A model generated the notes under the pieces. That model was not told where the DNA came from, ran no database searches, and saw only the letters and a list, made by a program, of their open reading frames with translations. Shown one piece after another: positions 3,317-61,655 of a DNA stretch of 64,000 bases. The position numbers and the translations under genes were made by a program. The DNA comes from Planctomycetota bacterium (GTDB lineage: Bacteria > Planctomycetota > Phycisphaerae > UBA1845): contig JACQFE010000006.1 in assembly GCA_016200265.1 (NCBI GenBank), forward strand, positions 4,112-68,111, read 5' to 3'. How positions within the stretch are numbered: position 1 is the stretch's first letter; each line of letters begins with the position of its first letter.

Positions 3317-3469
3317 CTATCCTTGCCCTGCGATCTGAAATGATAACTGCTCAAGCTGAACCAAGAGATCGACTGATGCCACAGCTACGTCAGCGCCGAC
3401 GTGAAGCGTCACCGGGGCGAAGTTGAGGATGCCGCGGATGCCGGCGGCGACCATGGCTTCGGCCGCGAG
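3317..3469 (-). pseudogene. rex: 3' remnant of redox-sensing transcriptional repressor Rex
   Basis: AAEAMVAAGIRGILNFAPVTLHVGADVAVASVDLLVQLEQLSFQI matches the Rex C-terminus (GILNFAP...VDL...L). The upstream wHTH and GxGxxG regions are absent. Confidence 0.75.
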
Positions 3470-3752
3470 GATTACGTATCGACGGATGCACCCTTGCCGC
3501 CGACTTACCGGACCCCACGCGCCTTGCGGCGGAATCATCTTACCGGACACAAACCGCCAAATCTGCAAGTTCGCTTCTGCGGCCCAATTGCGACGCGCGT
3601 GGTTGCCAGTCATTGAGAGAATCATCTGCGATCGCTATGATCTATTGTTCCGACGGATGGGGATCGGACCTTCTCATTCCTGCGCCAACTTGGAAAAGGA
3701 AGAAGCACTCAGTACGCGTCAGCGAGTGAAAGCGACCTTGGGAGAACGGACG

Positions 3753-5462
3753 ATGCGGCACACGACAAGGTGGTTGTCGAAAGTTTGTCTGTGCATCATC
3801 TCCAGCGCGATTGAGTTCGGCTGCGGCACGAGTATTCCCACACCAACAATCAGCGATACGCAATTGGGCGACCCAAATACGAGTCCTGTCGATCGGCCTC
3901 ACGTGGTTTTGCACGAACAGACCGTCAACGAAGGGGACACCGTAGTCCTCCAGACTGATGAAATTCCTTCAAGTACCGGTTCATCAAAGGTCAATGGTTG
4001 GACGCAAATTTACGGACCGACCGTCGAGATCACCAATCAGCTCTCTCGAAATTTGAGCTTTGTTGCGCCCCAGGTGACCGCCGCTTCTCTGCTGGTCTTT
4101 CGGTTCTCCAGCATCTCCGGAGATCGTTACGACGTAAATTTGTACGTCATCCACGTCATGAATGCCGTTGCACCTTCGGATTCGTCGCTATGTGGAGGAG
4201 TCGTTTGTGAAACAGGAACGCAATGCAATAAAGCGACTGGGGCCTGCCAGGCGACATTCGGGGTCTGCGAAAATGTGATCTGCTCGCAGGGTGAGACTTG
4301 CGATGACTTGACGGGCAACTGCGTTGCGGCATCGCCATGCAGCGGAGTGACGTGCTCTTCGAATCAACATTGCAATCCAGCCACGGGGTCATGCGAATCA
4401 ACATGCGTCGGTGTAACCTGTCCGGCAGGAACGCAGTTGAATGCCGATCATTGCACCTGTGAGGCCATTTCGCTCTGCAAGTCAGTGACCTGCCCCGCGG
4501 GTCAGAACTGCGATCCGGCCACAGGTAGTTGCGTAACAGTTGACCCTTGCCAAAATGTTTCGTGTTCCGGTGGTTCCATTTGCGACGCTCAGACAGGCCA
4601 GTGCGTTTCCACGGGTGGGTGCGCAGACCCGCCGACAGGGGCTGTGTTCACCGTCACCGACAGTTCGGTAGGAACGAATCAATACGACATCAATCCGAAC
4701 TTCTGGATCGAATTCAGCATGGATTTGGATCCGCAGACGTTTTCCCCGGACATCCTTTCGGTGCAACAGGCCGGTCCGGACAACGCCTGGAGTACCGCCG
4801 ACGATGTGGTTGTAAGCACGACAGCACAGCTTAACTGCTGCCGGCGGATCGCAGTTTCCCTTGCACCGCAGGATGGCGCTCTGGCTGCCGGGCGCCGGTA
4901 TCGCGTCCAGATATCACCCGGATGCCTGAAGGCGACGGCCAGCAACGGCGTCACGCACGGACTCGATGGCGAATTCAGCGGCATGTTTCCGACTGGGAAC
5001 GGCGCATTCGGAGGCGTGTTCGTGCAGGAGTTCATCGGGGTGGCTCCTGGGCCCTATTCCGGCGATCTTGTCTGCAATGAAGAAACCCGCGATATTCTGG
5101 GTCGAGTGACTCAGGAAACCAAACACTATAATGACACCATCACGGTCGATCCGGCCGGAATGCTCGTACTCGCCGGGCAGCCGGTGCAGGTGGGCAGTAC
5201 CATGAATCCTCCATTTACGGGCATTCAACTCGAGATGACTGTCACAAGTGTGACACCACAGCGTACCGGGATCCATGTCACGTATGATGTGTCCGGCTTG
5301 AAGGACAATTACCAATTTACCGGCCCGCAAGAAGAGACTTACATCTTTGTCGGCGATGGGACGATCTTGCATGCCGGCACGTCTTCATTCAATGTAAACG
5401 CAGGCAGTGGCGCTGTCGTTGCCACGGTCCACCGTACGTGCAGCGGAACGCTCAAGCAATGA
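3753..5462 (+). CDS. Secreted or lipid-anchored protein with Ig/PKD-like domain, Cys-rich CxxVxC repeats and a Big_5-like domain
   Basis: ATG 3753 follows GGAGA; signal-like N-terminus ending FGCG; about six CxxVxC..G..C...TG.C repeats; IEFSMDLDP...LAAGRRYRVQI is Ig-like. Stop overlaps the next ATG (ATGA). Confidence 0.7.
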   Translation: MRHTTRWLSKVCLCIISSAIEFGCGTSIPTPTISDTQLGDPNTSPVDRPHVVLHEQTVNEGDTVVLQTDEIPSSTGSSKVNGWTQIYGPTVEITNQLSRNLSFVAPQVTAASLLVFRFSSISGDRYDVNLYVIHVMNAVAPSDSSLCGGVVCETGTQCNKATGACQATFGVCENVICSQGETCDDLTGNCVAASPCSGVTCSSNQHCNPATGSCESTCVGVTCPAGTQLNADHCTCEAISLCKSVTCPAGQNCDPATGSCVTVDPCQNVSCSGGSICDAQTGQCVSTGGCADPPTGAVFTVTDSSVGTNQYDINPNFWIEFSMDLDPQTFSPDILSVQQAGPDNAWSTADDVVVSTTAQLNCCRRIAVSLAPQDGALAAGRRYRVQISPGCLKATASNGVTHGLDGEFSGMFPTGNGAFGGVFVQEFIGVAPGPYSGDLVCNEETRDILGRVTQETKHYNDTITVDPAGMLVLAGQPVQVGSTMNPPFTGIQLEMTVTSVTPQRTGIHVTYDVSGLKDNYQFTGPQEETYIFVGDGTILHAGTSSFNVNAGSGAVVATVHRTCSGTLKQ

Positions 5463-6487
5463 ATCACGGGCTCATTGAGGCCGAGATTCGCGCCATTGCG
5501 GCGGCGCTCCCCAAGGGCGTTGTCACCAATGATGATCTTGATCGCGAACATCCGGAATGGAATCTTGAGCTGATCGCGCGTCGACTCGGCGTCGTGCGCC
5601 GGCACATCGCCCGCTCCGATGAAACTGCGTTGGATCTTGGTGATCAGGCATGTCGATCGCTCTTTGAATCCCATCCCAATCTTCGTCAGGACGTCGACAC
5701 GCTGATTTTTTGCACCCAGAGCGCCGACTACATTCTTCCTCCGAACGCCACGGTGCTTCATGGTCGCTTGGAGTTGCCCCAACGCGTCGCGGCATTCGAT
5801 ATCAATCTGGCGTGTTCCGGGTTTGTGTACGCCCTGCACATTGCCCGATCGATGATTCGATGCGGGGCGGCGCAACACATACTCTTGGTCGCCGGAGACA
5901 CGTATTCGAAGTACATCAACAAGTCCGATCGGTCGGCGCGCGTGCTGTTCGGAGACGGCGCGGCGGCGACGTGGATCGCGCCGTCGGCGAACGGACTGCG
6001 GATCGGGGCCGCAATGTGTGAAACCTCCGGACGCGACTTCGAGACATTCATCATACCCGCCGGCGGTTGTCGGCGTGCACGATCCAATGAGACATTGATT
6101 GAGCATACGGACGAATCTGGAAACGTCCGCTGTTCGGAGAACATCCACATGGCCGGGCGCGGACTGCTTGACTTCATGTCCTCGACGATTCCGCGACACG
6201 TGGAGGAGTTCCTGCGCCGCAATGAATTACGAAAGGACGATATTGACTTGTACGTGTTCCATCAGGCCAGCGGCGTTGTGCTCGAATCATTGCAATGCGC
6301 GCTGGGGCTGGAACCAGATCGCGTATACAGAAACTTGCGCGATATCGGCAACACAGTGTCCGCCTCAATTCCCATCGCCCTGCGCGATGCACAGTCGGAC
6401 CATCGGATGTCCAGAGGAGGTCGCGTGCTGCTTTGCGGTTTTGGCGTCGGACTTTCCTGGGGTAGCGTTCTACTTGACGTGCTCTGA
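5459..6487 (+). CDS. fabH: Ketoacyl-ACP synthase III (FabH-like), cluster-associated
   Basis: DINLACSGF (catalytic Cys), FHQAS (His), IGNTVSASIP (Asn), LFGDGAAA and GFGVGLSW. Confidence 0.9.
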   Translation: MNHGLIEAEIRAIAAALPKGVVTNDDLDREHPEWNLELIARRLGVVRRHIARSDETALDLGDQACRSLFESHPNLRQDVDTLIFCTQSADYILPPNATVLHGRLELPQRVAAFDINLACSGFVYALHIARSMIRCGAAQHILLVAGDTYSKYINKSDRSARVLFGDGAAATWIAPSANGLRIGAAMCETSGRDFETFIIPAGGCRRARSNETLIEHTDESGNVRCSENIHMAGRGLLDFMSSTIPRHVEEFLRRNELRKDDIDLYVFHQASGVVLESLQCALGLEPDRVYRNLRDIGNTVSASIPIALRDAQSDHRMSRGGRVLLCGFGVGLSWGSVLLDVL

Positions 6488-6538: not shown

Positions 6539-7606
6539 ATGATCGAGATTCGCACGTACGACGGCGACGGCGAAGACGTTGCGGAGCTGACCGCCCGGGC
6601 GTGGCGGGCCGCTTACGGCGGCGTGAGCTGGTGCCCGTACTGGAGCGCGGAGTCCATTCGCTGGCAACTCCTGTCGGCGTGTCCGGATGATCGCGATTTC
6701 CTGGTGGCTGCATACAACGGGTGCCGGCTGGTCGGTTGCTTCTTTGCGAAACGGACGGCTTTTCAAATCAGCAGCCGGCAAGTCCTCGGCACGATCGGGA
6801 GTTGGTTTACAGTCGATCCCGAGGCGGGCTCGCCGCGTCTGGGGATGGCCATTGTCGAGGAGCTTCGCAGACGGCATGTTGAGTACGGGGTTGCGTTTCT
6901 TCTGGGCTATGTCAACGGTGGCCCGAACACGCCCGCCAATAAGTTCTGGAAATGCTTTGCAAAGCTCTACCCTGACCAGATCCGCTTTGTTCGAAAAATC
7001 GGATACTGGATCCGAATCCTGAACCCCTCGTCGCTTCGACGAAAATGCGTTCACTGGTTCGAGCGGTTCATCGTGGGCGTGCATGGAATTCTCCCGTTGC
7101 TGGGAGCGCCGCCAAGGAGGGCGCCTGAAGTTCGGGATTATGTCCACGGCGACTCGGATCGTTGTGGGCGTTTGGTTGGAGAATTAAGTAAGAACGCTGA
7201 CCTGGCGATGACGTGGTCGAGCGATCGGATCGCCACGCAACTGGATTGGAACGGCTTTCCTCGTACGCTAGTTCTGGATCACAACGGCGAGACTTTTGGA
7301 ATCGTTAATTATCATCCCTTCGGGCTGTTGGGGAAAGAAGTAGTGAGCACCGGACTCATTGACCTTCTCGGATGCGGGAGCGGCTCCGCCCATGATCAAC
7401 GCCGGTTGTTACGCAGCGCTATTGCACAGATGGATGCGAACGGCTTGGACATCGCGATGGCCTTGCGAACGAGCATGTTTCCGCCTCGCGTGATGCTGCC
7501 TTGCGGCTTCTGGCCCATGCCGCAGTCCGAGCATCTTGTCTATGCGTTTCCGCAACCGGGTCTGGACCTTCCGCCGGCGGATCGGCCCTTGATTCTCTTC
7601 CGGTAA
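6539..7606 (+). CDS. Putative tandem-GNAT-fold N-acyltransferase
   Basis: Two GNAT-like halves (IRTYDG...RLVGCFFA...WFTVDPE...LGMAIVEEL; VRDYVHGD...RRLLRSAI...GF). Fold assigned by pattern only. Confidence 0.55.
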   Translation: MIEIRTYDGDGEDVAELTARAWRAAYGGVSWCPYWSAESIRWQLLSACPDDRDFLVAAYNGCRLVGCFFAKRTAFQISSRQVLGTIGSWFTVDPEAGSPRLGMAIVEELRRRHVEYGVAFLLGYVNGGPNTPANKFWKCFAKLYPDQIRFVRKIGYWIRILNPSSLRRKCVHWFERFIVGVHGILPLLGAPPRRAPEVRDYVHGDSDRCGRLVGELSKNADLAMTWSSDRIATQLDWNGFPRTLVLDHNGETFGIVNYHPFGLLGKEVVSTGLIDLLGCGSGSAHDQRRLLRSAIAQMDANGLDIAMALRTSMFPPRVMLPCGFWPMPQSEHLVYAFPQPGLDLPPADRPLILFR

Positions 7607-7615
7607 AGAGCCAGT

Positions 7616-10570
7616 TCACTCCACTGAAGGTCCAGTTGCAATTGTCTCCGCCGATGCTCTGGGATCGCCGTGATGTGCAAATTCTCCGAGGTCCCATTCG
7701 TCGCCTTCGAGTACGACGTCAAATCCGTGTTTTCGGCCGAAGCCCTCGAGTTTTGCGATGGTCTCAAGTTGAAGAGGTCCGTACAAACCAGGTAGATCGT
7801 AGGCGCGCTCGAACGAGAGCAAGATCGTTTCAGCCACACAGGCCGGAACGTGCCGATCGTGCCCCCCGCGAAGTGCACGCACGTCGGCCTCACCGGCGAC
7901 CTCCACGGTTCCGCCGTCGATGAGCATTACGTCGGGCCGCGTCTTTCGAATGTCGCGGCAGACGTTGAACGGCCTGGACACATCGCAGACGACGGCCCCC
8001 CGCTTGAGATGACGCTCGAAGATCAGCACATCGACGGAATTGGTTGCGCTGATCACGATATCGGCCTGGGGCAGCTTTGCGTCGAAATCGGTCGTCAAGG
8101 AAAGCCGGTCGTCCGAAACCAGCAAGTTCTTCAAAACGTCGCGGCGACCACCGGCCTTTTCCGCAAGCCCAGCCAGATGCGCCGCAAGCGTTTGATCACC
8201 AGACGTTCGGCCTTGGTGCCGGGCAGCCAGCGCATGTTCGGCCGCCTCACACGCGATATCCAATAACTTCGACACGCTTCGCTCGGGCAACAACGGGTTG
8301 CCGACGAGAATCATTCGGCTCACGCTTTCCGCCATCAGCAGCGCGGCGGCGCGGCTGATGATCCCGCCGGCGCCGACGATGGCGACGGTGGCGTCTTCCA
8401 GCTTCACGCCTCGCTGACGGCATCCGAGTTCGACAGCCCGCTTGGCCATGACCACAGTGTAGGAATTCCCGTTCGTGAGTCTGGGGAGGTTCGGGCCGGT
8501 AAGGGACATGCCGCCCTGGGTAACAATTGAAGTAAACCCACCGAGTCCGACGATTTCCGCGCCGCGTGCCTTGGCGATCTCCACGGCGCGCAGCACTTCG
8601 GCCAAGGCCGTTTCAGCGGGAAGATGCATAAGCTCCTCAGCGGTGTGTGGAATCAGGATCAGTTCGCCGACGGCACCGCCTCCGGCGGGAGATCGAACCG
8701 AGATGGCGCCGACGGGAAACGGATCGACGAAATGGCTGATGCGACGGTGCAGCTCGTCGAGTTGCTTTTCGTTGAAGTCCGAGAACGACGGGTCGAAATC
8801 GGCATAGTCGCGGCTGGATAGCAGGTGAACGAGGAACGCGAAGCGGGTTCCTGAAGTGTCAACATGGCCTCGATGATACTCGCGATGCGAGGCTCTTAGA
8901 GAATCCGATTTCGCCACTGTGGCATGACATGGCACATCCTCACTTTGTCCGAGCACCATGTATCCGAACAGGGCACCGGCGTCCCCCTTTTGGAGCAATT
9001 CAAGCGTCCGATCGAGTGCGTGGATAAGCGCCGACCATTCCTCGCGTCCGGCAATCAGGGGCGGTTCGATTCGCAACACGGGTGCGCCGGCAAAAGCGGG
9101 AGCGACTCGCACACGCTCGACGTTGAGCAGGTAGCCGACGACGATTTGCAGGAGCAGTTGCTGCTCGGCCAGATGGACCAGCAGATCGGAGCCCAGGCCG
9201 TCCTCGTCGAATGCGAATTCCAAACCGAGCATGTATCCGCGTCCGCGGATTTCCGAGATGAGCCTAGGATAACGGGATTTCAAGTCTTCGAGTTGACGTT
9301 TAAGTGCTTCGCCGTTTTCCGCTATGTGCCGCACGAGCGCGCGGTCTTGCGCCTCCAACATATTCAGCACAGCGACTCCGGCGCAACAAGCGAGGGTGTT
9401 CCCGGCGAATGTGGAGGAATGCCAAAGCTCAAAATAGATGTTGTAGACCGCACTGGTGTACACACAAGCACCGATGGGCATCAGCCCGCCGCCCAATGCC
9501 TTGGCAAGAACGAGAATGTCCGGATTCACGCCGGCGTGCTCGCACGCGAACATTGTCCCGGTGCGACCGAGTCCGGTCTGCACTTCGTCTGCGATCAGCA
9601 AGACGCCGACATCGCTGCACAGTCGCTTTGCACCGTTCAAGTATCCGCTCGGGGCTTCGACGATTCCGCCCTCGCCCTGAATCGGCTCTACAAGAAATGC
9701 CGCGTAGTAGCCTGGGCGGCCCGCGAGGGCGGCTCGGAGGGCTTCGAGGTCGCCGTAAGGCACACGATCGAATCCCGGCACGGGTGCACCGAAATTCCGT
9801 TGAAACATCTCTCGTCCCGTGGCCGACATGGATCCGAGGGTTAGCCCGTGGAACGCATTTTCTGTGGATAGAACTCCGTTTCGCTTGGTGGCCGATCGGG
9901 CCAGCTTCAGCGCCACCTCGACGGCTTCAGTTCCACTATTGGCAAACGTGACATGCCGCATGTCTCCCGGCGCAATACGAACCAGCCGCTCGGCAAGTTC
10001 GCCGGCCGCGTCCATCAGTCCGGGATTCACAAAACTGGGAGTGAGCCGGTCTCTTGCTTCCAAAAGTGCGTCCCAGATTTCCGGAGGGTTGAATCCGAAA
10101 GGGAGGGCGCCGTATTGGGCGATGAGGTCCACATACCGATTGCCTATTTCATCATACAGATAGCAGCGCTCGCCGCGCACGAAGCGTTTGTCCAATCCAA
10201 GCTGTGAAAAAAGGAAGTACTTGTACGGCCCCACATACTGTCCGTAAGGATGAGCGTGCCGTGGAAGATCGTCGATGGAAGGTGGCGCAAGTCTCTCATT
10301 ACCCGTTAGTGAAATTTTTCGCTCGACGGGACGTGCACGCGCCGTCGGAGCGGCCATGACGGCGTGATCGCTCTGTTCGCTCGACCGCGAACTTTCCCGA
10401 GGGGTGTCTTCCTGGAGCAACTTCAGCAGGTAGTCTTTGTGCCGGCGCAGCTCGTCGCGCAGGCCGTCATCCAGGACTCCCTTGGGAGCGCTGAAGCGGA
10501 GGCGATCGCCATCGGCCCAAATCTCCACGCCTCGCCGTTTCAAGTCCGTGAGGAATGCGGCAGTCGTCAA
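7616..10570 (-). CDS. TubC_N docking domain + class III aminotransferase + acyl-ACP-reductase-like domain fusion (TamH-like)
   Basis: N-terminal LKRRGVEIWADGDRLRFSAPKGVL. Transaminase motifs NSGTEAVE, FHGLT, EPIQGEGG, DEVQTG and LAKALGGG (PLP Lys). Reductase motifs FAFLVH, VGLGGFTSIV, TNGNSYT, VAIVGAGG, CDVSRP and PACVAET. Confidence 0.85.
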   Translation of the reverse strand: MTTAAFLTDLKRRGVEIWADGDRLRFSAPKGVLDDGLRDELRRHKDYLLKLLQEDTPRESSRSSEQSDHAVMAAPTARARPVERKISLTGNERLAPPSIDDLPRHAHPYGQYVGPYKYFLFSQLGLDKRFVRGERCYLYDEIGNRYVDLIAQYGALPFGFNPPEIWDALLEARDRLTPSFVNPGLMDAAGELAERLVRIAPGDMRHVTFANSGTEAVEVALKLARSATKRNGVLSTENAFHGLTLGSMSATGREMFQRNFGAPVPGFDRVPYGDLEALRAALAGRPGYYAAFLVEPIQGEGGIVEAPSGYLNGAKRLCSDVGVLLIADEVQTGLGRTGTMFACEHAGVNPDILVLAKALGGGLMPIGACVYTSAVYNIYFELWHSSTFAGNTLACCAGVAVLNMLEAQDRALVRHIAENGEALKRQLEDLKSRYPRLISEIRGRGYMLGLEFAFDEDGLGSDLLVHLAEQQLLLQIVVGYLLNVERVRVAPAFAGAPVLRIEPPLIAGREEWSALIHALDRTLELLQKGDAGALFGYMVLGQSEDVPCHATVAKSDSLRASHREYHRGHVDTSGTRFAFLVHLLSSRDYADFDPSFSDFNEKQLDELHRRISHFVDPFPVGAISVRSPAGGGAVGELILIPHTAEELMHLPAETALAEVLRAVEIAKARGAEIVGLGGFTSIVTQGGMSLTGPNLPRLTNGNSYTVVMAKRAVELGCRQRGVKLEDATVAIVGAGGIISRAAALLMAESVSRMILVGNPLLPERSVSKLLDIACEAAEHALAARHQGRTSGDQTLAAHLAGLAEKAGGRRDVLKNLLVSDDRLSLTTDFDAKLPQADIVISATNSVDVLIFERHLKRGAVVCDVSRPFNVCRDIRKTRPDVMLIDGGTVEVAGEADVRALRGGHDRHVPACVAETILLSFERAYDLPGLYGPLQLETIAKLEGFGRKHGFDVVLEGDEWDLGEFAHHGDPRASAETIATGPSVE

Positions 10571-13500
10571 ATTTCACCCTCCTCCCGATCTTCCAATCGC
10601 GATGTTGCAGAGTCGATTTCGTCGGAGACATCCGTTTCCGCGATGGGTTCCGGCAGCGGACCCCCGACAAGAGAATGCACCTGACGATGTCCGTTGTCGA
10701 GATGAAAATGAGGCTGAATGCGATCGAAGTCCAGCCACCCGATCTGGCACAGACCAATCCCTTCTCTCGGCGCCTCCGTTTCAAGAAGCTGGGTCATCAG
10801 GCCGGACTCGATGATGGAAAATCGCAGTGCGTGCTCGCCGTACAGCGGTTCGATCGCCCGAAGTTGTGTGATGAAGAAGATCGAAAACGCGGCTTGTTCA
10901 AACATGCCGCGATTGACGAATGGCTCGTGAACGTCGGGATCAATGTCCGTGCCGGGCGACAAAGCAAGCAGAGCATGTTCTGCAGGATGATAGTAGTAGA
11001 CGCCACCATCCATGCGCTCCACGCGGCCGGGTTTCACATGGACATACGACTGAACCGGATAAAGCCCGCCTGCGGAACCATATTCATATTTGGGAGCGCC
11101 ATGCAACGAAAAGCGACGGAGGTTGCCGAGGAGACGACCCACTGATTCGAATTTCAACGGCGTCGCCGCAAACCGCCGATGGCTGCGACGACTAAATCTC
11201 ATTTTCGAATCCGGGCAGTCGAGAGCCGCACGTTCGAAGCGGATGCGCGGCGTGTCGGTCCCGAAATGCCGAAGCCCCGGCGCTGCGGCCTTAAATCGCT
11301 CGCGCTCTCGCGGATCAAGGATCAGTCTTGAAGACGACGACTGGGGCACTTGCGAGCTGAGCCCCGCAAGTGCGGTTGAAGATGACGGTTCTGCGCGCTG
11401 ATTCGCGCCGCGCTGGCGTGCTGCGGCCAGCGCATTCACCGTTGGAGTTCGGAAGAACTCGGCGAGTGATGGCTGGAAGCCGAATTCAGCCTCAATCCTA
11501 TTCGCAATTCTCACCATATCCACCGAATCGGCTCCGAGGTGAAGGAGGTTCGCATCGGCCGCGACGCTGGACAGCCCAAGTTCCTTCGCAATCAGCTCCG
11601 ACATTCGGAGGACAATCGGGTCCGGCGCGACCGCCGCGGATGTCGTGGCCGATGTGACGATTGAAGCGGGGTCGGGCAATAGGTCTCGGTTGAGCTTGCC
11701 ATTCGATGTCAGGGGAATCTTGGCAATGGGGACAATTTGAGTCGGTGTCATGTGGCATGGAAGACGCGATTGGACGTGCTCACGAAGACTCTGCAGGACG
11801 GTCGCCTCGGCGGCTTTTCCCGCGCATCCATTCTCGCGAAGCACGACATAGCCCACCAAGTGTCGATTCGCACGGTCTTTGCCCACAGCGGCGGCGACGG
11901 CGTGCTGGACCGCCGGATGGCTTGCCATCGCAGACTCAATTTCGCCCAATTCGATTCGGTGCCCGCGAATCTTGACCTGATGATCGAGGCGTCCAAGAAA
12001 CTCGATATTACCATCAGGAAGAAAGCGACCCCGGTCTCCGGTTCGGTAAAGTCGCTCACCGCTGACGGGATGCCGGAAAAAGCTTTCTGCGGTCTTCCGA
12101 TCGTCCCGCCAGTAACCACGAGCAAGCCCGACGCCGCCGATGTAAAGATCGCCCGGCACCCAGGTCGGGCAATCGTCCAAATCCGCATTCAACACACGCC
12201 AGCTTTGATTGCGCAATGCTTTGCCATAGGGAATGCTGGTCCATTCGGGATCGACGGATTCGATCGGGTAGTGGATTGACCAGATGGAGGCTTCCGTGGC
12301 GCCGCCAAGGCCGATGATTCGCGCATGGGGTGCCATCCGGCGAATCCGATCCGGAAGACTCACGGGAATCCAATCACCGCTGAGCAGCACGAGTCGGAGA
12401 CTCTCCAATATCGTTCCACGCCCGGCCAAGTGTTCCACGAGCATTTCCATCAGTGCGGGAACTGTGTTCCAAACCGTGATTCGTTCTTGTTGAATCAGCT
12501 CGGTCCAGCGTCGTGGATCTCGCACCGCGCCGGCCTCGGGCATGACGACTGTGCCACCTGCGGCGAGGAGCCCGAACATGTCGTACACCGACAGATCAAA
12601 ATGCAATGCGGAGAGTGCCAGAATCTTGTCATCGGGGCCGATCCCGAAACGATCATTCAGGTCAAGAATCGTGTTGACCGCGCCGCGATGATCGGTCATC
12701 ACCCCTTTGGGAGTTCCCGTCGAGCCGGAGGTGAAGATCACATACGCGAGGCGTTCGGGATCCACGGGCTTTTCTTCGCGAGCAATGTCTTCCGACATCG
12801 CGTTTTCCAGAGTGACGCAATGAACGCCTTCCGGCCAGGTCAGACTGGCGGACAGCAATGGGGTCGTCACGGCAATCTGAATCTCTCCGATTTCAAGGGC
12901 CTGTTGAAAACGACTTTCGGGCCAGGTCGGGTCAATCGGCAAGTAGGTGGCTCCGACTTCCAGGATTCCAAGCGCGGCGATGACCTGGCCGGCTTCTTTT
13001 TCCATCACCACAGCCACAGGTCGATCCGACGCGGCGCCCATCGTGCGCAGTCTTTGGGCAAGTCGCAAGGCTTGTCGACGGAGCGCTTCGTAGTCCAGTG
13101 TTTGTCCATCCGCGATGACCGCCGGACGATCAGAATAGATGGAGGCGCTGCGGAAAAACAGGGTGTGCAAACCATCGGCGGTCAACGGTGCGGCGGTGTC
13201 ATTGGCCGCATCTCGGACTTGATGTTGGACCGTCGGGAGCTCGATCGCCCCTTTTTGCTCCCATGCCGCCGGGTCATAGGCCAGCCGGTGCAGAAGTTGG
13301 CCATAGGTTTCGAACATGTCCTGCAAGAGCCCGGCCGGGAACAAATCCTCCACGGCGTCCCAGGTCAGCACGAGTGAGTCTCCCTGCTCCATGACCTGGT
13401 GATCCAGCCAGACCTGCGGAGTCTGCGAGATTCCGTACACGAACTCGCCCACAGAGAGGATGCGGGCGGCTGGCACCGACGCGCCGAAGATGCTCGTGAA

Positions 13501-14682
13501 CACGATGGGGCTGAAGGAAGAATCCTGCCGCTTCTCCTGTCGCATCAAGTCGCGCAGCACTCGGATGCCACTGTATTGGCAGTGATCGAGGTCGTCCCAG
13601 AATTGCTGCTGCTGCCGCCGGGCACATTGCAGAAAAGTCGAGTTTTCGGCGCCATCGAACGCAACCAGCATCGTGGAGGTGAAATCGCCGATAAGTTCAA
13701 GAACCTGAGGGTGGAGCGGGTTACGGTTAAAGACTGTGGCGTTGATCGTAAACCGCGGATTCTGGCTCCATCGCCGCAGGACCGTCCCAAATGCCGCCAG
13801 CAGGATGCCAGAGGGAGTCAGGTTCGAGTTGCGAGCGGCATTCTTCAGTCGGCCCCACTGTTTCTCATCCAGCGTACGGGAAAGGCGCACGAATTTCGGT
13901 TTTGGAATTTGACGCGGATCGCGAGCCAAAGGAAGACCCGGCGCCGACGGCAAAGTGGACAGCCGATCCCGCCAGTACGCTTCGGCCCGCTTGTATTCCG
14001 CACCGCTCCGTGCTGCTTCCTCCGCCAACACATAGTCTCGAAAGGAAATCTCCAGGGTCGGCAATGGAAGATCAGGATTGTCGTATAACATGAACCACTG
14101 GGCGAACAGGATGCGAATGCTCCAGGCATCCAGAATGAGCAGGCTCAGGCTGATGTGCAGCCGGACGTGGCATTCGTCAATGAAAGTCGCGCGGATGTCG
14201 AAGAGCGGATAACGATCGGGGGCCGGCACCTGGTGCGACATTTCATCACGTGTCGCGAGAAGACCCTGTTCTTGAAGATGCTCGCCAGCCGCGCGCAGGT
14301 CATTCGTTCGAATGTTGAAAAAAGGAACGGCCTTGAGAATTCGCTGCCGTCCGTCATTACCGATCACGGCGCGAAGCATGTCGTGGTAGCCGATGAGTCG
14401 GTTGAATGCTCGCTCCAGGCGCGGGAGGTCCAGATTTTCAGATTCAAACTCGAAATAGGCGTGCGCGGCAACAGTGCCCAGATCAAACAATCCCTGCTGT
14501 CCAAGCCAGTACGCGTATTGGGCGTCAGTCAATGGAAATGGATCGTGACGTCCGGATGGATCGGCAGTCCATGCGGGCGTCGGCCCGGTCTGGATTTGCT
14601 GCTTATTGCGCAGAAGATCTGCCAGCAGGAGACGCCGCTGCTCCGCGGAGAGTCTCTCGAGGTCGGCTTGACTTGTCGACAT
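10567..14682 (-). CDS. NRPS module Cy-A(Cys)-PCP-Ox (thiazole-forming)
   Basis: Cy: PFPLTDAQYAY, IGDFTS, PIVFTS, SQTPQVWLD. A: YVIFTSGSTGTPKG, code read manually as DLYNLSLIWK (Cys). PCP: LGADS. Ox: RRSHRRF, SAGGLYPVQ. No thioesterase. Confidence 0.93.
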   Translation of the reverse strand: MSTSQADLERLSAEQRRLLLADLLRNKQQIQTGPTPAWTADPSGRHDPFPLTDAQYAYWLGQQGLFDLGTVAAHAYFEFESENLDLPRLERAFNRLIGYHDMLRAVIGNDGRQRILKAVPFFNIRTNDLRAAGEHLQEQGLLATRDEMSHQVPAPDRYPLFDIRATFIDECHVRLHISLSLLILDAWSIRILFAQWFMLYDNPDLPLPTLEISFRDYVLAEEAARSGAEYKRAEAYWRDRLSTLPSAPGLPLARDPRQIPKPKFVRLSRTLDEKQWGRLKNAARNSNLTPSGILLAAFGTVLRRWSQNPRFTINATVFNRNPLHPQVLELIGDFTSTMLVAFDGAENSTFLQCARRQQQQFWDDLDHCQYSGIRVLRDLMRQEKRQDSSFSPIVFTSIFGASVPAARILSVGEFVYGISQTPQVWLDHQVMEQGDSLVLTWDAVEDLFPAGLLQDMFETYGQLLHRLAYDPAAWEQKGAIELPTVQHQVRDAANDTAAPLTADGLHTLFFRSASIYSDRPAVIADGQTLDYEALRRQALRLAQRLRTMGAASDRPVAVVMEKEAGQVIAALGILEVGATYLPIDPTWPESRFQQALEIGEIQIAVTTPLLSASLTWPEGVHCVTLENAMSEDIAREEKPVDPERLAYVIFTSGSTGTPKGVMTDHRGAVNTILDLNDRFGIGPDDKILALSALHFDLSVYDMFGLLAAGGTVVMPEAGAVRDPRRWTELIQQERITVWNTVPALMEMLVEHLAGRGTILESLRLVLLSGDWIPVSLPDRIRRMAPHARIIGLGGATEASIWSIHYPIESVDPEWTSIPYGKALRNQSWRVLNADLDDCPTWVPGDLYIGGVGLARGYWRDDRKTAESFFRHPVSGERLYRTGDRGRFLPDGNIEFLGRLDHQVKIRGHRIELGEIESAMASHPAVQHAVAAAVGKDRANRHLVGYVVLRENGCAGKAAEATVLQSLREHVQSRLPCHMTPTQIVPIAKIPLTSNGKLNRDLLPDPASIVTSATTSAAVAPDPIVLRMSELIAKELGLSSVAADANLLHLGADSVDMVRIANRIEAEFGFQPSLAEFFRTPTVNALAAARQRGANQRAEPSSSTALAGLSSQVPQSSSSRLILDPRERERFKAAAPGLRHFGTDTPRIRFERAALDCPDSKMRFSRRSHRRFAATPLKFESVGRLLGNLRRFSLHGAPKYEYGSAGGLYPVQSYVHVKPGRVERMDGGVYYYHPAEHALLALSPGTDIDPDVHEPFVNRGMFEQAAFSIFFITQLRAIEPLYGEHALRFSIIESGLMTQLLETEAPREGIGLCQIGWLDFDRIQPHFHLDNGHRQVHSLVGGPLPEPIAETDVSDEIDSATSRLEDREEGEI

Positions 14683-14793
14683 GCTTCTTGCCCTCAGCCA
14701 TGAACTCTTCGAAAACGACTAGCATCTCTCCGGTGCGAAACCGTGAATTTTTCGCAGCGAATGTACTCGTCGGCGATCCACATACGGTCACGT

Positions 14794-16242
14794 CTACGCG
14801 ACACCGGCAGACGAAGAATCAAGCACGACGAGTCCCGGCCGTGAGGCATTGCCGGGAGCCAAATCTCGGTATGCACGTTCGCGCAGAAGAGCGTTTCTCT
14901 GAAACGCCAGCACAGTCTGCACCAAGGGCGTGTAGTAAACCCCCTCCGGAGTGAGCGAAATACGATCCTCAGACCAGTCCACCAGCCCTCGCTCCCGGAG
15001 TGCATCCCAACTCGCTCTGTGCTCCTCAAGAACGTCCGCGCCGAAACGAGATTGATATCCCCGGCGATCGACCCACATGCCCTGCAAATGGCGGAACAGC
15101 TGATCCAGACGGTGGTCCACCGCGTCTCGACGGAACCCACATTCAATGGGCATCTCGTCGCGGGAGAGACGTCCGACATAATCCTTGACGCGCCGCGCGT
15201 TCACATAGGTTAGACTCGTGGAGGCATCGCTCGATTGAAAATTGGATACTCCCGCGAAGCCCCACCCGAACGTCTCATGACAGTGCCAGTCTCGCTCGCA
15301 CTCTTCGTAGACGAATTCACCAGCCTTGTCGTCACATGTCTTTTCGAAATCATACGGGGTCCGCTGACGATAGCCGTTGGCCGCAAGAAAATCCCGCGAT
15401 GCGTGGTACATCTCCCGACATACAGCTGGCGAAGGAAGCTCATCGCGCCGATGGAGGGCAAAATCCGTTGCCCCACCAACGTTGAGCTCATAATGCGTAA
15501 TGTGATCCACGCCCGTCGCCACGAGCCGTTCCAAATCGGCAAGCATGAGTGAAACGGTTTGTCTTGGCCAGCCGAAAATCAAGTCGGCATTGCAGGCCAA
15601 TCCAAACTCCTGACACCATTCGATGGCATCCAGTGTGTGCTCGACGGTTTGTTTTCGACCGCTGAAGGCATTCAGTTCGGAATTGAGTTGCTGCACGCCC
15701 ATGCTGATGCGACGAATCCCCACGTCTTTCATCGCCAGCAGTTTTTCCCGTGAAAAAAGCGGCGGAATGCCTTCCAGCGTGATGCAATCCGAATCCGTCA
15801 CATTGGGAAAGACCGTTCGTATGATCGCCACCAGCCGACCGTATTGATCCGCCTTGAGCAGGTTTGGTGTTCCACCCCCGATGTAAACGGATTGGGGCAC
15901 GCGTCCTTCGAGCAGCGGCCGGTAGATCTGTCCCTCTCGTTCCAGATAGCCCAGGTAGTCGTCGATCTGCCTCGAGCCCGCAAAATCCTCCACAGGGAAA
16001 AGGCAATAGCCGCATTTTCCCGGATTAGTGGGGATGCAATATGGAACTCCCACGTACAGGTGAAACTCACGATCCTCGTTGTGTGCAGCATGATTTGATT
16101 CGACGATGTCGCTGACCGGAGCGACCATTTTTCGCCACAGCCGCGGCGAAGGAAAACCGTGCAGAATCTTATTGACCTGCCGAAGCTGCATCTGCTCATT
16201 AAGGAGCAAACGGACGTCGTGCTGATCCGAATCCATAATCAA
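14794..16242 (-). CDS. HemN-like (class C) radical SAM enzyme
   Basis: LYVGVPYC-x7-CGYC, VYIGGGTP, RISMGVQ, DLIFGWPRQT and HITHYEL, plus a HemN_C-like tail. Start is TTG 16242 or ATG 16236. Confidence 0.85.
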   Translation of the reverse strand: MIMDSDQHDVRLLLNEQMQLRQVNKILHGFPSPRLWRKMVAPVSDIVESNHAAHNEDREFHLYVGVPYCIPTNPGKCGYCLFPVEDFAGSRQIDDYLGYLEREGQIYRPLLEGRVPQSVYIGGGTPNLLKADQYGRLVAIIRTVFPNVTDSDCITLEGIPPLFSREKLLAMKDVGIRRISMGVQQLNSELNAFSGRKQTVEHTLDAIEWCQEFGLACNADLIFGWPRQTVSLMLADLERLVATGVDHITHYELNVGGATDFALHRRDELPSPAVCREMYHASRDFLAANGYRQRTPYDFEKTCDDKAGEFVYEECERDWHCHETFGWGFAGVSNFQSSDASTSLTYVNARRVKDYVGRLSRDEMPIECGFRRDAVDHRLDQLFRHLQGMWVDRRGYQSRFGADVLEEHRASWDALRERGLVDWSEDRISLTPEGVYYTPLVQTVLAFQRNALLRERAYRDLAPGNASRPGLVVLDSSSAGVA

Positions 16243-16287
16243 GATCCCACCTCCCAGCGCAATCTCCGGTCGTTTGCCCAGGTTCCC

Positions 16288-17586
16288 TTATACACTCGCT
16301 TCTGTCTGTTCCGAGAGTGCCAAGACGTCTCGCAGCAGATATCGCGAAAGCTCGTCAATGGTCTGAAACATGAGTCCGGCGCCGGGCGGAAGCGTAAAAC
16401 CCAGCGCTTGTTGAATCCGAAATTGCAATTCGATGGCCAGCAACGAATCCAACCCGATGGAAAAAAACCCGCGTTGAAGGTCCGCATGTGCTGCGGTCTT
16501 GAGCTTGAGCAATTCAACCACATTCTGTTCAACAAAATTCGTCAAGAGCGGCAGTCGTTGCGCCGGTGGCGCGGCCTCGATTCGCCGGGAAAGAGTCGTC
16601 GGCGTGACTGAACGCGAGGCTCCCGACCTGGGACTTGGGCGCGCATCGCGTGCAGGCAGTCGAAACGCTGCTTTCGATCGGAACGAATCTCGTGTGACGG
16701 TTCGAAAATGGACGCCTTCAAGAGTCGCCACGCCATATCCGGAATCGTCCGCAACGGAAAAATCGGCGATGCGTTCGTCGGAATGATCCGACGGAACATG
16801 GGGCCGGCAATTCACAAGAACTCGCTGAGGACACTTCCCGGAAAATCGGATTCGATCGATCCGAGTTGGAATCGCGGCTCGATTACTGTCGCTTCCATTG
16901 GAAAATTCCATCGCTGCAACCTGGAGACAACCGTCCAGCAAGGCCGGATGAAAGCGATTTTCGTCGGTCGAATGCGGTGATTTATCGTCAAGGCGCAATT
17001 CGTATCCGATTGTGCCTTTCTCTCTCCAGACGGAACGTACGACGCGAAGCGACTCACCCCATCGGAACGGTCCTGAGTTCGCGCGAGCATAGAAATCTTC
17101 TTCAGATGAGTGAGTTCCGGGACGACCGCCCGCTGAATCTCGCTTCATTTGTTCGAGGAAGGAGACGCCAATCGGCGAAGATTCATGCTCAACGATTCCT
17201 TCGGCATGCTTGCGCCACTCCGACTCATTGTTGGTGGGTATCGCCGCACTCTCCACATCAAAGGCGGCTGTCTCCTGCTTCACGCGACGTACCCGAACGC
17301 GGAAAATTCTCGATTCCTCCGTGGGCAACGCAAGAAAGTCATGAAAGTTCACATCGGCGACCGCGACGCCATAGAGCCCGGTCAATTGCTGGGCGGCGTC
17401 AAGGGCGGCGTCAAGGTAGGCTGCAGCCGGGAGAACCGGCACGTCAAAAAGTCGATGGTCGGAAAGCAGCGGGGTCGAACGGGACCGCACCTCCGTTTGA
17501 AAGTGAATTTCATTGGGGCGGCGGTCCAACACAACCTGTTGCAGCAGCGCATTGGTCAAGCTGGCCGACACGGCGGTTTCACGCAT
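16288..17586 (-). CDS. Stand-alone PKS dehydratase-ACP didomain protein
   Basis: DH motifs LSDHRLFDVPVLPAAAY and HPALLDGCLQ; C-terminal ACP FFSIGLDSLLAIEL. Confidence 0.85.
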   Translation of the reverse strand: MRETAVSASLTNALLQQVVLDRRPNEIHFQTEVRSRSTPLLSDHRLFDVPVLPAAAYLDAALDAAQQLTGLYGVAVADVNFHDFLALPTEESRIFRVRVRRVKQETAAFDVESAAIPTNNESEWRKHAEGIVEHESSPIGVSFLEQMKRDSAGGRPGTHSSEEDFYARANSGPFRWGESLRVVRSVWREKGTIGYELRLDDKSPHSTDENRFHPALLDGCLQVAAMEFSNGSDSNRAAIPTRIDRIRFSGKCPQRVLVNCRPHVPSDHSDERIADFSVADDSGYGVATLEGVHFRTVTRDSFRSKAAFRLPARDARPSPRSGASRSVTPTTLSRRIEAAPPAQRLPLLTNFVEQNVVELLKLKTAAHADLQRGFFSIGLDSLLAIELQFRIQQALGFTLPPGAGLMFQTIDELSRYLLRDVLALSEQTEASV

Positions 17587-17707
17587 TCGACAATCCCAGT
17601 TTGAACGGCAATCGACCTTTCGTCACCGGCCCAAGAGGAACTAACTTATACAGCGTCAACCACTTGATCGTCAAACGATAATTGGCGGATGTGCGAATGG
17701 AACGTGC

Positions 17708-17914: not shown

Positions 17915-20900
17915 ATGGCGTTGCGCGAACCAATTGCAATCGTGGGAATCGGCTGTCGGTTGCCCGGCAAGGTGTCGAATCCGGAATCGTTCTGGCGTCT
18001 GCTGTACAATGGCGTCGACGCGATTTCCGAGGTTCCGCCGGACCGATGGCGTTGGCAGTCATTCTATCATTCGGAACCCGGCACACCCGGGAAGCTCTAC
18101 GTCCGTCGAGGGGGATTCATCGAAGGAGTGGACCTCTTTGATGCCCCGTTTTTCAACATCTCCCGCCGCGAGGCAAGCTGGGCCGATCCCCAACAGCGTC
18201 AACTCCTTGAGGTTTCCTATGAAGCGCTGGAAGACGCCGGCTTGTCGCTCGACGCGATCGCCGGAACGCGGGCCGCCGTGTATGTCGGCATCTCGACTTA
18301 CGACTACGGTGCGATGCACGGACGCACTCATGAACGCCTCGAACTCGACGCGTATACGAGCCTCGGCTCAGCCCTTTGCGTGACGGCGAATCGCATCTCG
18401 TATTTCTTCGATCTGCACGGCCCGAGTTTGGCCGTCGACACGGCATGTTCGTCATCGCTGGTGGCCACTCACCTGGCCTGCCAGAGCATCTGGAATCACG
18501 AAGCCTCCATCGCCCTCGTCGGCGGCGTGAACGTCCTGCTCCAACCGGATGGAACGATCGGCTTTTGCCAGGCCCGGATGCTTGCGGCGGACGGACAGTG
18601 CAAGAGTTTCGACGCGAGCGCTGATGGATACGTACGCGCCGAAGGGGCTGCGGTCGTGGTGCTCAAACCGTTGAGCCAAGCCCTGCGCGATGAAGACCGG
18701 ATCTATTCGCTGATTCGAGGCACGGCGGTCAATCAGGATGGTCGTACGACCGGAATCACCGTTCCCAGCGAAGCCGCCCAAACCGCGATGTTGCAAGATG
18801 TCTATCGCCAGGCCGACATCGTCCCGCAAGACGTTCAGTACGTCGAAGCGCATGGAACCGGCACAGCCGTCGGCGATCCGATCGAGCTTCACGCCATCGG
18901 AAAAGCGCTCGGGATCGGTCGATCCCAGGACGATCCCTGCCTGGTGGGATCGGTGAAGAGCAATCTGGGGCACCCGGAAGCGGCATCCGGAGTGGTCGGT
19001 TTGATCAAAGCGGCTCTCTGCGTCTTCCACGGTCAGATTCCTCCAAGTCTCCACTACCGAAACCCCAACCCAAACATCCCCTTTGAGGAGCTGAAGCTCC
19101 AGGTGGTCCGGGAGTTGCGGTCTTGGCCGAAAAATGGGCATGAATTTCGTGTGGCCGGTGTCAATTCGTTTGGATTCGGCGGCACGAATGCGCATGTGGT
19201 GCTGACTTCGCAACAGGTGGAATCGGCCCAACACGTAGCGCCCCGGGGTTCCAATGGACGAGCGTTACTGGTTCCATTATCCGCAAGAAGTTCTGCCGCG
19301 GTAAAGGCCGCAGCGCATTCTCAGGCCGCGTACTTCGCTGATCCTCTGCGTGCATCGGTCGAACTCAATGACATTGCCCACACCGCGGCACTCCGGCGGA
19401 CGCATCATGAATTCCGCACGACCGTCGTGGCGCATTCCGTTGCCGAATTCGTCGAAAGCGCACGCACATGGGCCGATGATTCGGCTCCCGTCGAGAGCGT
19501 TGCGCCCGATGCAGCCGGACAGCTGGCTTTTGTGTTTTCCGGCATGGGGCCTCAATGGTGGGGCATGGGCCGACAACTATTTGAAACGGAGCCGGTATTT
19601 CGCAAAACGCTGGAGCAATGCGACGCGGCCCTGCGCACTCATGTCTCGTGGTCTCTGCTGGACGAATTGGGCAAAGATGAAACCCGAAGTCGCATCAACG
19701 AGACGTACATCGCCCAGCCGGCGATCTTTGCTATTCAGATGGGCCTCTCCAGACTTTGGAATTCATGGGGCATCCGCCCGAGTGCGGTGATCGGGCACAG
19801 CCTTGGCGAGGTCGCGGCAGCCTGCTGTGCAGAAGTTCTCAATTTCGAAGACGCCGTCGCCCTCATCTATCATCGCAGTCGACTTCAACAATTGACTTCA
19901 GGTGAGGGACGAATGCTGTCCGTTGCCATGCCCTTCGCGGAGATTGAAGCGCTGGTCGCCGACTCCGACGGTCTGGTTTCGATTGCGGCTTACAACAGTC
20001 CGGAGTCGGTCACGATTTCGGGCGACGCGACGGCCCTTCAGCAGATTTCCGAGGGCCTCACGGCGCGAGAAATCTTCAATCGATTTCTCAAGGTAGACGT
20101 TCCTTACCACAGTCGCGCCATGGACCGGCTTGAATACGAACTCCAAGCATCGTTGCGAACGCTTTCTCCACGCCCCGCGGCGATCACTCTGATTTCCACC
20201 GTCACCGGCGGCAAGGTTCGCGGCGAAGAAATGAACGCAGAGTACTGGTGGCGAAGCATGCGCTATCCGGTCCGGTTCCGCGAAGCGATTGCTACCGCCG
20301 CCCGGAACGGCCATCGAATGTCCCTGGAGATTTCACCGCACCCGGTGATGTCGGCCTCTATTTCTGAATCCGCCCCCGGTACAAGAGTATTTTCATCGTT
20401 AAGGCGAAATGAACCCGAACGGGAAACCATGTTGAAGTCCGCGGGTCAACTGTACAGTTGCGGATTTTCTTTGAACTGGAAGGCCGTCAACGGGGATGCA
20501 GGCCAGTTCATTTCGATGCCGCGGTACCCCTGGCAGCATGAACGCTACTGGCACGAGTCGGAGCGCGGCGCACAAGAGCGCATGGGCATCCAGCTTTATC
20601 CGTTCTTGGGTGCGAAGTGTGATTCGACGCATTCCACTTGGGTGACGGACCTGAACCATCACTGTCTCGACTTTCTAGATGACCACCAAGTCGAACAGAA
20701 CGTCGTATTTCCTGCGGCTGCCTATCTGGAGATGGCCTTGGAGGCGGCCTGCGAATTATTCGGCCGACCACCGTATGAAATCGAAGGCCTGACCTTTGAG
20801 AAGGTGATGCTCCTTCCACGCGATGGGCGTCCGATCGTGCAACTGGCGTTCGGTGAACGGGCCAGCGAATTCGGGATCTTCAGTCGCGCACGCACCACGA

Positions 20901-58970: not shown

Positions 58971-58971
58971 G

Positions 58972-61648: not shown

Positions 61649-61655
61649 GTGTTGC

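Follow-up and report, generated by a model that had tools for sequence, protein, structure and literature searches.

Introduction

In function, the protein discussed here would resemble TamH of the tambjamine YP1 pathway in Pseudoalteromonas tunicata, which turns acyl groups bound to the acyl carrier protein (ACP) part of TamA into amines and rejects acyl-CoA (PMC9594044). We compare TamH and related systems with a gene found in 64,000 nt of a Planctomycetota genome (NCBI assembly GCA_016200265.1, 4.56 Mb in size and 94% complete; contig JACQFE010000006.1, positions 4,112 to 68,111), a stretch that we call the window. The gene (7616..10570, minus strand) codes for a tri-domain protein of 984 aa in which, judging from its open reading frame (ORF), Pfam and NCBIfam matches and an AlphaFold2 (AF2) model, a docking domain of the beta-hairpin type (beta-HD domain) is followed by a class-III aminotransferase and an acyl-ACP reductase (AAR)-type thioester reductase. 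It starts where the gene of a nonribosomal peptide synthetase (NRPS) with an acidic C-terminal tail stops. We propose, with a probability of roughly 0.65, that the protein acts in trans on the adjacent polyketide synthase (PKS)-NRPS line and releases the 2-alkylthiazole-4-carbonyl group from the peptidyl carrier protein (PCP) as an amine.

The likeness to TamH lies in the order of the parts, a class-III transaminase, a linker of ~50 aa and an AAR-like Cys/NAD(P)H reductase, and in the reaction: like the protein proposed here, TamH turns a carrier-bound acyl substrate into a primary amine (PMC9594044). In the accessible part of that source no docking domain is described for TamH, its partner is TamA, a didomain of an adenylation (A) domain and an ACP loaded with a C12 fatty acyl group, and the pathway is a bipyrrole one; compared by description, the present protein differs in its 56-aa beta-HD domain, its thiazole-forming NRPS partner and its PKS/NRPS context. 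A second single-chain system is PigE from the MAP branch of prodigiosin biosynthesis in Serratia, which reduces a thioester and then transaminates the aldehyde (PMC8341465). PigE is the best solved relative of both catalytic halves and likewise unites thioester reductase and transaminase, though with the reductase first, with a beta-keto thioester of a pyrrole precursor as its substrate and with prodigiosin rather than PKS/NRPS genes as neighbours; when the solved sequences were searched with the N-terminal domain from the window, there was no match to a docking domain in PigE. The cyanobacterial AAR (6jzq, 6jzu, 6jzy) has the fold, the catalytic Cys and the Gly-rich nucleotide motif in common with our protein and differs in being stand-alone, in handing its aldehyde to a deformylating oxygenase and in sharing only 22% identity.

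In assembly lines that end on an amine, an equivalent overall conversion of the thioester through the aldehyde into a primary amine is carried out in myxochelin biosynthesis by MxcG, with an R domain of the short-chain dehydrogenase/reductase (SDR) type, and MxcL, a separate aminotransferase. The coelimycin-type combination of a thioester reductase and a transaminase has the same net outcome at the end of its line (PMC9594044). In these systems the transaminase stands alone and the SDR reductase works in cis and forms no covalent intermediate on a Cys, whereas here a single trans-acting protein of another fold would be recruited by docking. The TAD domains (putative terminal amidation domains) of the carmabin and vatiamide NRPSs (PDB 9e4s-9e56) come nearer in fold: they too belong to the AAR superfamily, and their invariant Cys next to NAD is so located that it could accept a PCP-bound intermediate. 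They differ in their cis fusion to the NRPS C-terminus (~400 aa), in a macrodomain-like N-subdomain and in an identity of 15%.

The docking part has its own precedents. The pairs TubB-TubC, EpoA-EpoB and Bamb_5917-Bamb_5915, together with Kj12 and AerJ, are of the same docking family, in which a beta-HD domain meets an acidic C-terminal short linear motif (SLiM) on a flexible linker; what sets the present case apart from them is that an aminotransferase, with an AAR-type reductase joined to it in one chain, comes behind the docking domain. According to a review (PMC9113145), Kosol et al. 2019 found beta-HD domains ahead of thioester reductases, and SLiMs after oxidases; halogenases, thioesterases and methyltransferases are also given there as enzymes preceded by beta-HD domains. 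The thioester reductases of that survey, which covered 1400 pairs, may overlap with proteins of the kind studied here, which we call TA-TR (transaminase followed by AAR-type thioester reductase). Finally, in bacillamide biosynthesis (BmdB/BmdC) thiazoline oxidation is performed, as in our case, by a nitroreductase-type oxidase; there the oxidase is separate (PMC8795117) and release occurs by condensation with tryptamine, while here the oxidase is fused to the NRPS and followed by the docking tail.

The docking domain

The preliminary description of this DNA, made from its letters, had assigned the first ~52 aa of the protein to a TubC_N docking domain and the remainder to an intact transaminase using pyridoxal phosphate (PLP) and an AAR-like domain; searches with hidden Markov models (HMMs) for TubC_N and Aminotran_3, at E-values far beyond what chance would give, and sequence comparison for the AAR-like part recover all three. 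All coordinates given below within this gene and within the NRPS gene are on the minus strand. The docking domain, residues 1-56 (10403..10570), is recognised by Pfam TubC_N (PF18563), which scores 58.4 bits (E 7.7e-16) at residues 5-54, where 26 bits would suffice, the match spanning positions 3-52 of the 52-position profile (50/52). In a six-frame search of the whole genome the score was 63.2 bits and this gene was the sole TubC_N match in the assembly; the 14 control genomes gave none. Searched against solved docking domains, the N-terminal 62 residues matched AerJ (8aqq, E 2.6e-12), EpoB (5t7z, 9.5e-7) and TubC (2jug, 2e-6), with weaker matches to Bamb_5915 and Kj12B.

The AF2 model gives the N-terminal domain a helix at residues 3-12, strands at 16-20 and 23-27 and helices at 35-43 and 45-55, with pLDDT of 85-95 across the block, and this is the alpha-beta-beta-alpha-alpha order of the beta-HD fold as laid out in the review (PMC9113145). 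Among 10 sequences, L10, G14 and L24 never vary and W18 and R25 hardly do. Behind the domain follows a partly disordered linker, residues 57-105 (10256..10402), with pLDDT below 50 at residues 57-86 and a consensus devoid of conserved residues. The full-length model, built on an alignment of 50 sequences, has a mean pLDDT of 85.5 and a pTM of 0.80.

The catalytic domains

The aminotransferase core, residues 131-518 (9017..10180), matches Aminotran_3 over just those residues (E 1.5e-89; 301 bits, with the cut-off at 30.5). Its best Foldseek match is the transaminase of PigE (4ppm; E 1.2e-35, TMt 0.83, 39% identity), followed by the putrescine enzyme YgjG, the ornithine/acetylornithine aminotransferases OAT and ArgD, and CrmG. 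That the transaminase is intact, as the preliminary description had it, agrees with the complete conservation of Lys357 (in LAKALGGG, 9500-9502) and Asp328 (in DEVQTG) in 50/50 aligned homologues; by analogy with the family at large and with K340 of TamH (PMC9594044), Lys357 would be the Schiff-base lysine and Asp328 the residue binding the pyridine nitrogen.

The thioester reductase domain, residues 570-955 (7706..8863), was identified by phmmer and Foldseek. In phmmer searches the C-terminal 424 aa matched PigE's N-terminal domain (4ppm, E 3.7e-19) and the cyanobacterial AAR (6jzq/6jzu, E 2.7e-16). Cys911, the cysteine of the PACVAET motif (7838-7840) that had been presumed catalytic, aligns with the catalytic Cys in 'faCfaE' of AAR and with the Cys of PigE, and a Gly-rich motif, GAGGIIS, occupies residues 733-739 (8354-8374); C911, G733 and G736 are each invariant in 50/50 aligned homologues. 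When the domain was modelled alone (residues 556-984; pLDDT 90.2), Foldseek placed AAR first (6jzy, E 1e-22, TMt 0.81, 22% identity) and the carmabin TAD as a second group (9e56 with E 1.6e-18 and TMt 0.68; TMt 0.62-0.68 and 14-15% identity for the group), the remaining fold matches being more than 10 orders of magnitude weaker. By analogy with these relatives, we predict that the domain uses NAD(P)H to reduce a thioester on a carrier protein to the aldehyde.

Measured against curated models, the protein is a relative of PigE and AAR. The AAR equivalog model of NCBIfam (TIGR04058) gives 81.3 bits (cut-off 449.7), and the sequence comparison makes the reductase domain a homologue of AAR and no orthologue. 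The best NCBIfam model, that of the PigE equivalog (NF053554), reaches 484.8 bits where 850 are required, and it matches in three separate stretches because the domain order is permuted. A TAD it is not either: the domain is located on a separate protein behind a transaminase, and its fold is closer to AAR. The order of transaminase (131-518) and AAR-like reductase (570-955) is the one by which the TamH-type TA-TR is defined (PMC9594044). The tri-domain protein belongs to the TubC_N family and to the class-III aminotransferases and can be told apart from PigE, AAR proper and TAD; functionally it would resemble a TamH to which a docking handle has been added.

The partner NRPS and its tail

The NRPS gene (10567..14682; 1371 aa) encodes, from ORF translation and Pfam matches of the Condensation, AMP-binding, PP-binding and Nitroreductase types, a Cy domain (13264..14538), an A domain (11695..13158), a PCP (11422..11598) and an Ox domain of the nitroreductase type (10678..11193), followed by the tail. 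Its best relative in the PDB is the Cy-A-PCP of bacillamide BmdB, a module that activates cysteine and makes a thiazoline, aligned over residues 46-1086 with E 1e-216 and 726 bits, and FmoA3 and PchE are the next solved ones. Read by eye from the landmarks FDLSVYD, WNTVPAL, LLSGDW, GGATEASIWS and NGK, the A domain yields D-L-Y-N-L-S-L-I-W-K, which we take to be the cysteine code. The Cy-A-PCP-Ox order, the likeness to BmdB and this presumed cysteine code lead us to expect that the protein finishes with a thiazole-4-carbonyl thioester on its PCP. At residues 180-188, the Cy domain reads SLLILD, with D185 invariant in 16/16; if, as we assume, the motif is DxxxxD, its first Asp is a Ser here, and this position is Asn or Ser in the closest relatives and Asp in more distant ones.

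Scanning 34 ORFs over the window with Pfam revealed neither a thioesterase nor a reductase domain of the SDR type, and a role in release for the tri-domain protein is supported by this lack. The NRPS ends in SRLEDREEGEI, the sequence given in the preliminary description and borne out by the translation, with ~30 poorly conserved linker residues between Ox and REEGEI. The codons of REEGEI, the presumed short linear docking motif, occupy 10570..10587. Across the whole genome, with 16,896 open frames counted from a length of 100 aa upwards, a single frame ends with the pattern [EQD][EDG]GE[ILVM], that of this NRPS; a looser acidic-tail rule is satisfied by seven of the same frames.

The tail recurs among relatives. 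With the Ox domain and tail together as the query, 120 relatives were listed, 30 of which end with the strict pattern (REEGEI in 8, REEGEV in 6, WEEGEL in 4, FQEGEL in 3, and others); many more of those listed have near variants such as WEEGVL and WMEGEI, and another group carries a different, helical type of tail. Acidic tails behind oxidase domains are therefore a common feature, in line with the review's account of Kosol et al. 2019 (PMC9113145). Among the relatives of the NRPS that were fetched, the tail is present in 17/26 and missing from 9/26, and in 16/16 aligned relatives, rows chosen for having a tail, the last residues follow (R/W/F/Y)(E/Q)(E/L)GE(I/V/L) behind an unalignable linker. 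An orthologue of the tri-domain gene, 62% identical over the whole length, was found in one of 60 relatives, genome G047, where the upstream gene ends in REEGEV and overlaps the orthologue by ATGA. Four of the five residues identical between the two tails use different codons (GAA GAG GGC GAG in G047), and because of these differences we see selection on the peptide, beyond a ribosome-binding site, as the reading to which the codons of these two loci point. Outside the window and G047, the link between docked enzyme and SLiM-ended NRPS rests on identical lengths of the source sequences; five pairs of docked TA-TR and tailed Cy-A-PCP-Ox proteins are connected in this way (lengths 1029685, 48961, 16713, 9068 and 10608).

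A complex prediction with residues 1-62 of the tri-domain protein and residues 1336-1371 of the NRPS, run without controls, scored 0.24 against a mark of 0.32, a value that we count neither for nor against binding. A comparison by eye of tail type (REEGE[IV] versus [FY]QEGEL) with docking-domain residues in six pairs gave no clear charge compensation. The pairing of acidic tail and beta-HD domain is unique in the genome, and on sequence grounds we regard REEGEI as the cognate motif of the docking domain, with binding as a prediction.

The two genes overlap by four bases, as had been noted, although the bases are TTGA rather than ATGA: the NRPS stops with TGA at 10569-10567 and the tri-domain gene starts with TTG at 10570-10568. 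TTG is taken as the right start since the first in-frame Met is residue 72, past the docking domain, and since fetched homologues begin with M-T-x-A-A-F-L at this place; a start at that ATG was rejected, as it would delete the conserved docking domain. An AGGAGG at 10583-10578 lies 7 nt ahead of the TTG and is built from the Glu-Glu-Gly codons of the NRPS tail (GAG GAG GGT). One stretch appears to double as docking motif and ribosome-binding site.

Homologues of the tri-domain protein

The homologue counts refer to the 120 best database matches to the tri-domain protein, with TubC_N confirmed by a custom HMM. At the N-terminus, 57 of them (the window's own protein included) carry a beta-HD domain, seven a fused A-ACP and one a fused ACP, and 55 have no extension. 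The 56 further docked proteins come mostly from soil metagenomes and are annotated just as 'aminotransferase' or class-III aminotransferase; named homologues belong to Planctomycetota, Streptomyces, Hydrogenedentes, Xanthobacteraceae, Rokubacteria and others. In the proteins with a fused carrier (P0044, P0045, P0059, P0060, P0071, P0098, P0122 and P0075), AMP-binding and PP-binding domains precede the TA-TR core in the seven of ~1600 aa, and one has the carrier only. The A-ACP-TA-TR chains look, from their domain order, like a TamA-TamH-type pair in one protein. The family seems repeatedly to have attached a substrate-delivery device to one catalytic core, a pattern that fits a docking domain whose task is to bring the carrier.

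Searches elsewhere brought up no additional docked TA-TR. Among 401 sampled genomes of the window's own phylum there were nine TA-TR-like matches, none of them docked except the window's own; 401 sampled genomes of the phylum to which genome G461 belongs gave 15 matches with E <= 1e-100, and the two full-length TA-TR loci fetched from these both lack a docking domain. A metagenome scan with patterns from the transaminase motifs returned 80 loci, in none of which the custom HMM found a docking domain. One locus from a single-protein search of genome contigs (L001) matched in the docking domain only, at the head of an open frame of more than 3,000 codons.

Neighbouring genes

The tri-domain gene is the last of four genes that form an operon with short gaps on the minus strand. 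The first (16288..17586) encodes a DH-ACP didomain protein (PS-DH, PKS_DH_N and PP-binding matches). Between it and the NRPS gene sits the gene of a HemN-like (class C) radical SAM protein (14794..16242; Radical_SAM in Pfam), whose NCBIfam matches to the STM4012 family (159.5 bits) and to ChuW/HutW (137 bits) are both under their cut-offs. HemN-like class C radical SAM enzymes perform thiazole methylation or polyketide-chain cyclopropanation. A promoter and terminator scan of 7300-18100 returned counts at the level of shuffled sequence (3 against 3.7 and 15 against 11.0 in shuffles).

Divergent from the operon lies a PKS gene (17915..25732, plus strand) with the Pfam domain order KS-AT-DH-cMT-ER-KR-ACP, from which the Cy domain presumably receives its acyl chain. 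The C-terminus of the PKS (...SDQEVNDQLQRLLAEAKK) looks helical, as does the N-terminal stretch of the NRPS (..LERLSAEQRRLLLADLLRNK), and the two may form an additional docking pair, different in class, that joins PKS to NRPS; the C-terminus of the DH-ACP protein differs from the helical tail of the PKS. After the PKS come a HetI-type phosphopantetheinyl transferase (25772..26563, minus strand; ACPS in Pfam, and NCBIfam 4PPT_HetI with 146.5 bits against a cut-off of 370) and, alongside it, two FtsX-type permease genes.

On the other side, convergent with the tri-domain gene, a plus-strand gene (6539..7606) encodes a GNAT-like acyltransferase of 355 aa. The protein itself has no Pfam matches; the assignment comes from the GNAT clusters of a protein atlas (score 0.97) and from weak Pfam GNAT matches found on the G047 copy alone. 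That copy is 43% identical and keeps the convergent position. A release role is supported by the convergent GNAT-like gene at both loci, and its protein is a candidate N-acylase of the amine product, a suggestion we would not press further. Two genes from the tri-domain gene lies a FabH-like KAS III (5438..6487, plus strand; NF006829 with 261.7 bits, above the cut-off of 249), whose membership in the cluster is doubtful because no counterpart exists beside the G047 orthologue.

A 679-aa protein (3423..5462, plus strand) with Cys-rich repeats (..C..V.C..G..C....G.C.) and weak matches to PKD-like domains and the tail of M36 peptidases is probably secreted and unrelated to the cluster. At 57849..63712 (minus strand) there are ordinary genes of aromatic amino acid synthesis, for DAHP synthase, PRA isomerase, IGP synthase and a fusion of GATase and anthranilate phosphoribosyltransferase, and for a PALP-family protein, probably tryptophan synthase beta. 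Families of the bipyrrole pathway did not turn up in the Pfam scans of the window.

Discussion

Sequence analysis shows the identities of the domains, their catalytic residues and fold, and the presence of the tail together with its conservation and its uniqueness in the genome. The scheme that we build on this runs as follows. The PKS would make a reduced, probably methyl-branched acyl chain, and the Cy-A-PCP-Ox module would join it to cysteine, cyclise and oxidise the product and so leave a 2-alkylthiazole-4-carbonyl thioester on the PCP. REEGEI, held on its flexible linker of ~30 residues, would then add as an extra strand to the docking domain (residues 1-56) and in this way bring the PCP to the C-terminal domain of the tri-domain protein. 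There the acyl group would pass to Cys911, as in acyl-ACP reductase, and be reduced by NAD(P)H to the aldehyde, which the fused PLP aminotransferase, with its Lys357, would turn into a primary amine, (2-alkylthiazol-4-yl)methanamine; N-acylation by the conserved GNAT next door may follow. By analogy, the transfer to Cys, the reduction and the amination would take the course demonstrated or suggested for AAR, PigE and TamH (PMC8341465; PMC9594044), and an aldehyde channel between the reductase and PLP sites has been proposed for PigE and for GluTR-GSAM (PMC8341465). What we infer concerns the docking itself, which substrate is used, the sequence of the reactions, the product formed and what the GNAT-like protein does.

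Several points weigh against this scheme. A preference for thiazolyl over fatty acyl groups is our proposal, with binding and activity predicted from the sequence, and the characterised homologues TamH, PigE and AAR take aliphatic chains (PMC9594044; PMC8341465); the cluster itself encodes two ACPs, that of the PKS and that of the DH-ACP protein, which could be the substrates. G047 provides the only other docked locus with readable DNA context, and in one further pair linked by sequence length (P0016/P0216; 18619) the NRPS has no tail. In a FastTree of the TA-TR core, a quick tree rooted at its midpoint, docked and undocked forms are interleaved, so that either the docking domain comes and goes easily or a number of the gene calls are incomplete. 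The AGGAGG is made of codons of the tail, and part of their conservation could serve translation. Finally, in FR-901375 biosynthesis the SLiM was found to be dispensable in vivo and the beta-HD domain critical (PMC13324335), so the tail may matter less than the docking domain.

The main rival to thiazolyl release is a TamH-like role on fatty acyl-ACP. The enzyme would act on an aliphatic acyl group on the ACP of the PKS or of the DH-ACP protein and produce a fatty amine, docking to the NRPS serving only to position the amine or the complex, and the amine possibly joining the NRPS product. We consider this unlikely, though it is the alternative that survives best: every characterised relative uses aliphatic acyl thioesters, the two ACPs are at hand, and the adjoining GNAT-like and FabH-like acyltransferases could couple the amine to an acyl group. 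However, the acidic tail belongs to the NRPS, while the ACP proteins have C-termini that are helical or non-acidic, and without the PKS chain the Cy domain would have no acyl donor. If the TA-TR protein were assigned elsewhere, no release activity would remain among the scanned ORFs for the PCP thioester, and the G047 copy has no FabH-like gene at its side.

Still less probable, in our judgement, is that there is no functional docking pair, with the tail codons (GAGGAGGG) kept mainly as a ribosome-binding site and the substrate found by carrier recognition alone. In favour of this, AGGAGG lies 7 nt ahead of the TTG, TamH is active without a docking domain (PMC9594044), 55 of the 120 best homologues do without an N-terminal extension, and one system, that of FR-901375, dispenses with its SLiM in vivo (PMC13324335). 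A ribosome-binding site does not explain, however, why four of the five residues shared with G047 are encoded by other codons, why the terminal hydrophobic residue and the Gly are conserved too, or why like tails end many Ox-terminated NRPSs, and a folded, conserved domain of 56 residues without a partner is hard to account for.

We give very little credence to a TAD-like reaction, in which the C-terminal domain would take the acyl group on its Cys and release an amide, the aminotransferase handling nitrogen in some other way. TAD is the second fold-match group (9e56, E 1.6e-18, TMt 0.68), and its invariant Cys beside NAD is thought to take a PCP-bound intermediate (bioRxiv 10.1101/2024.10.28.620694). 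The AAR is nearer, though (22% identity and TMt 0.81, against 15% and 0.62-0.68), the chemistry of TAD is itself putative, and a fused omega-transaminase of the PigE/YgjG/CrmG type fits an aldehyde intermediate. Equally improbable is that one catalytic half is inactive or the gene silent, with the product released hydrolytically or by a distant enzyme: purified PigE did show no clear NAD(P)H consumption in vitro (PMC8341465) and the cluster is patchy (1/60 relatives), but the catalytic residues are all intact and invariant, the frame is open, the G047 orthologue is 62% identical over its full length and the scanned ORFs of the window contain no other release domain.

With reductive-amination release of the thiazolyl thioester as the preferred reading, the interpretation given in the preliminary description, a TamH-type enzyme with a docking domain after an acidic-tailed NRPS, is retained; its novelty is weaker than was implied, given TamH, the survey of beta-HD domains and reductases, TAD and the 57/120 homologues with docking domains. 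In the literature searched we found no description of a docking-domain TA-TR protein or of the reductive amination of a thiazolyl-PCP. Each part has its precedent, in TamH, in PigE and in SLiM/beta-HD docking; we have not seen the combination described, and no principle is overturned by it. A wider claim, which we offer tentatively and at slightly less than even odds, is that docked TA-TR proteins are a widespread and unrecognised third ending of assembly lines beside thioesterases and SDR domains: a portable trans module that would convert any SLiM-tagged carrier thioester to a primary amine, the family having solved delivery three times, with A-ACP, with ACP and with beta-HD.

If our reading is true, this cluster would yield a 2-alkyl-4-(aminomethyl)thiazole, which the GNAT-like protein may N-acylate, and a single recruited protein would release assembly-line thioesters as primary amines, which would widen the known release chemistries. 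It would also give a rule for genome mining, TubC_N, Aminotran_3 and AAR-like domains after a SLiM-ended module indicating release by reductive amination, and many clusters yet to be characterised would be predicted to end their products in an amine. With its 6-residue tag, the docking domain would offer a handle for steering a thioester-to-amine biocatalyst to a chosen carrier protein; work on TamA and TamH has aimed at such a cascade for fatty amines (PMC9594044). A natural fusion of transaminase and AAR-like reductase may also inform how nitrogen reaches NRPS products through TAD domains (bioRxiv 10.1101/2024.10.28.620694).

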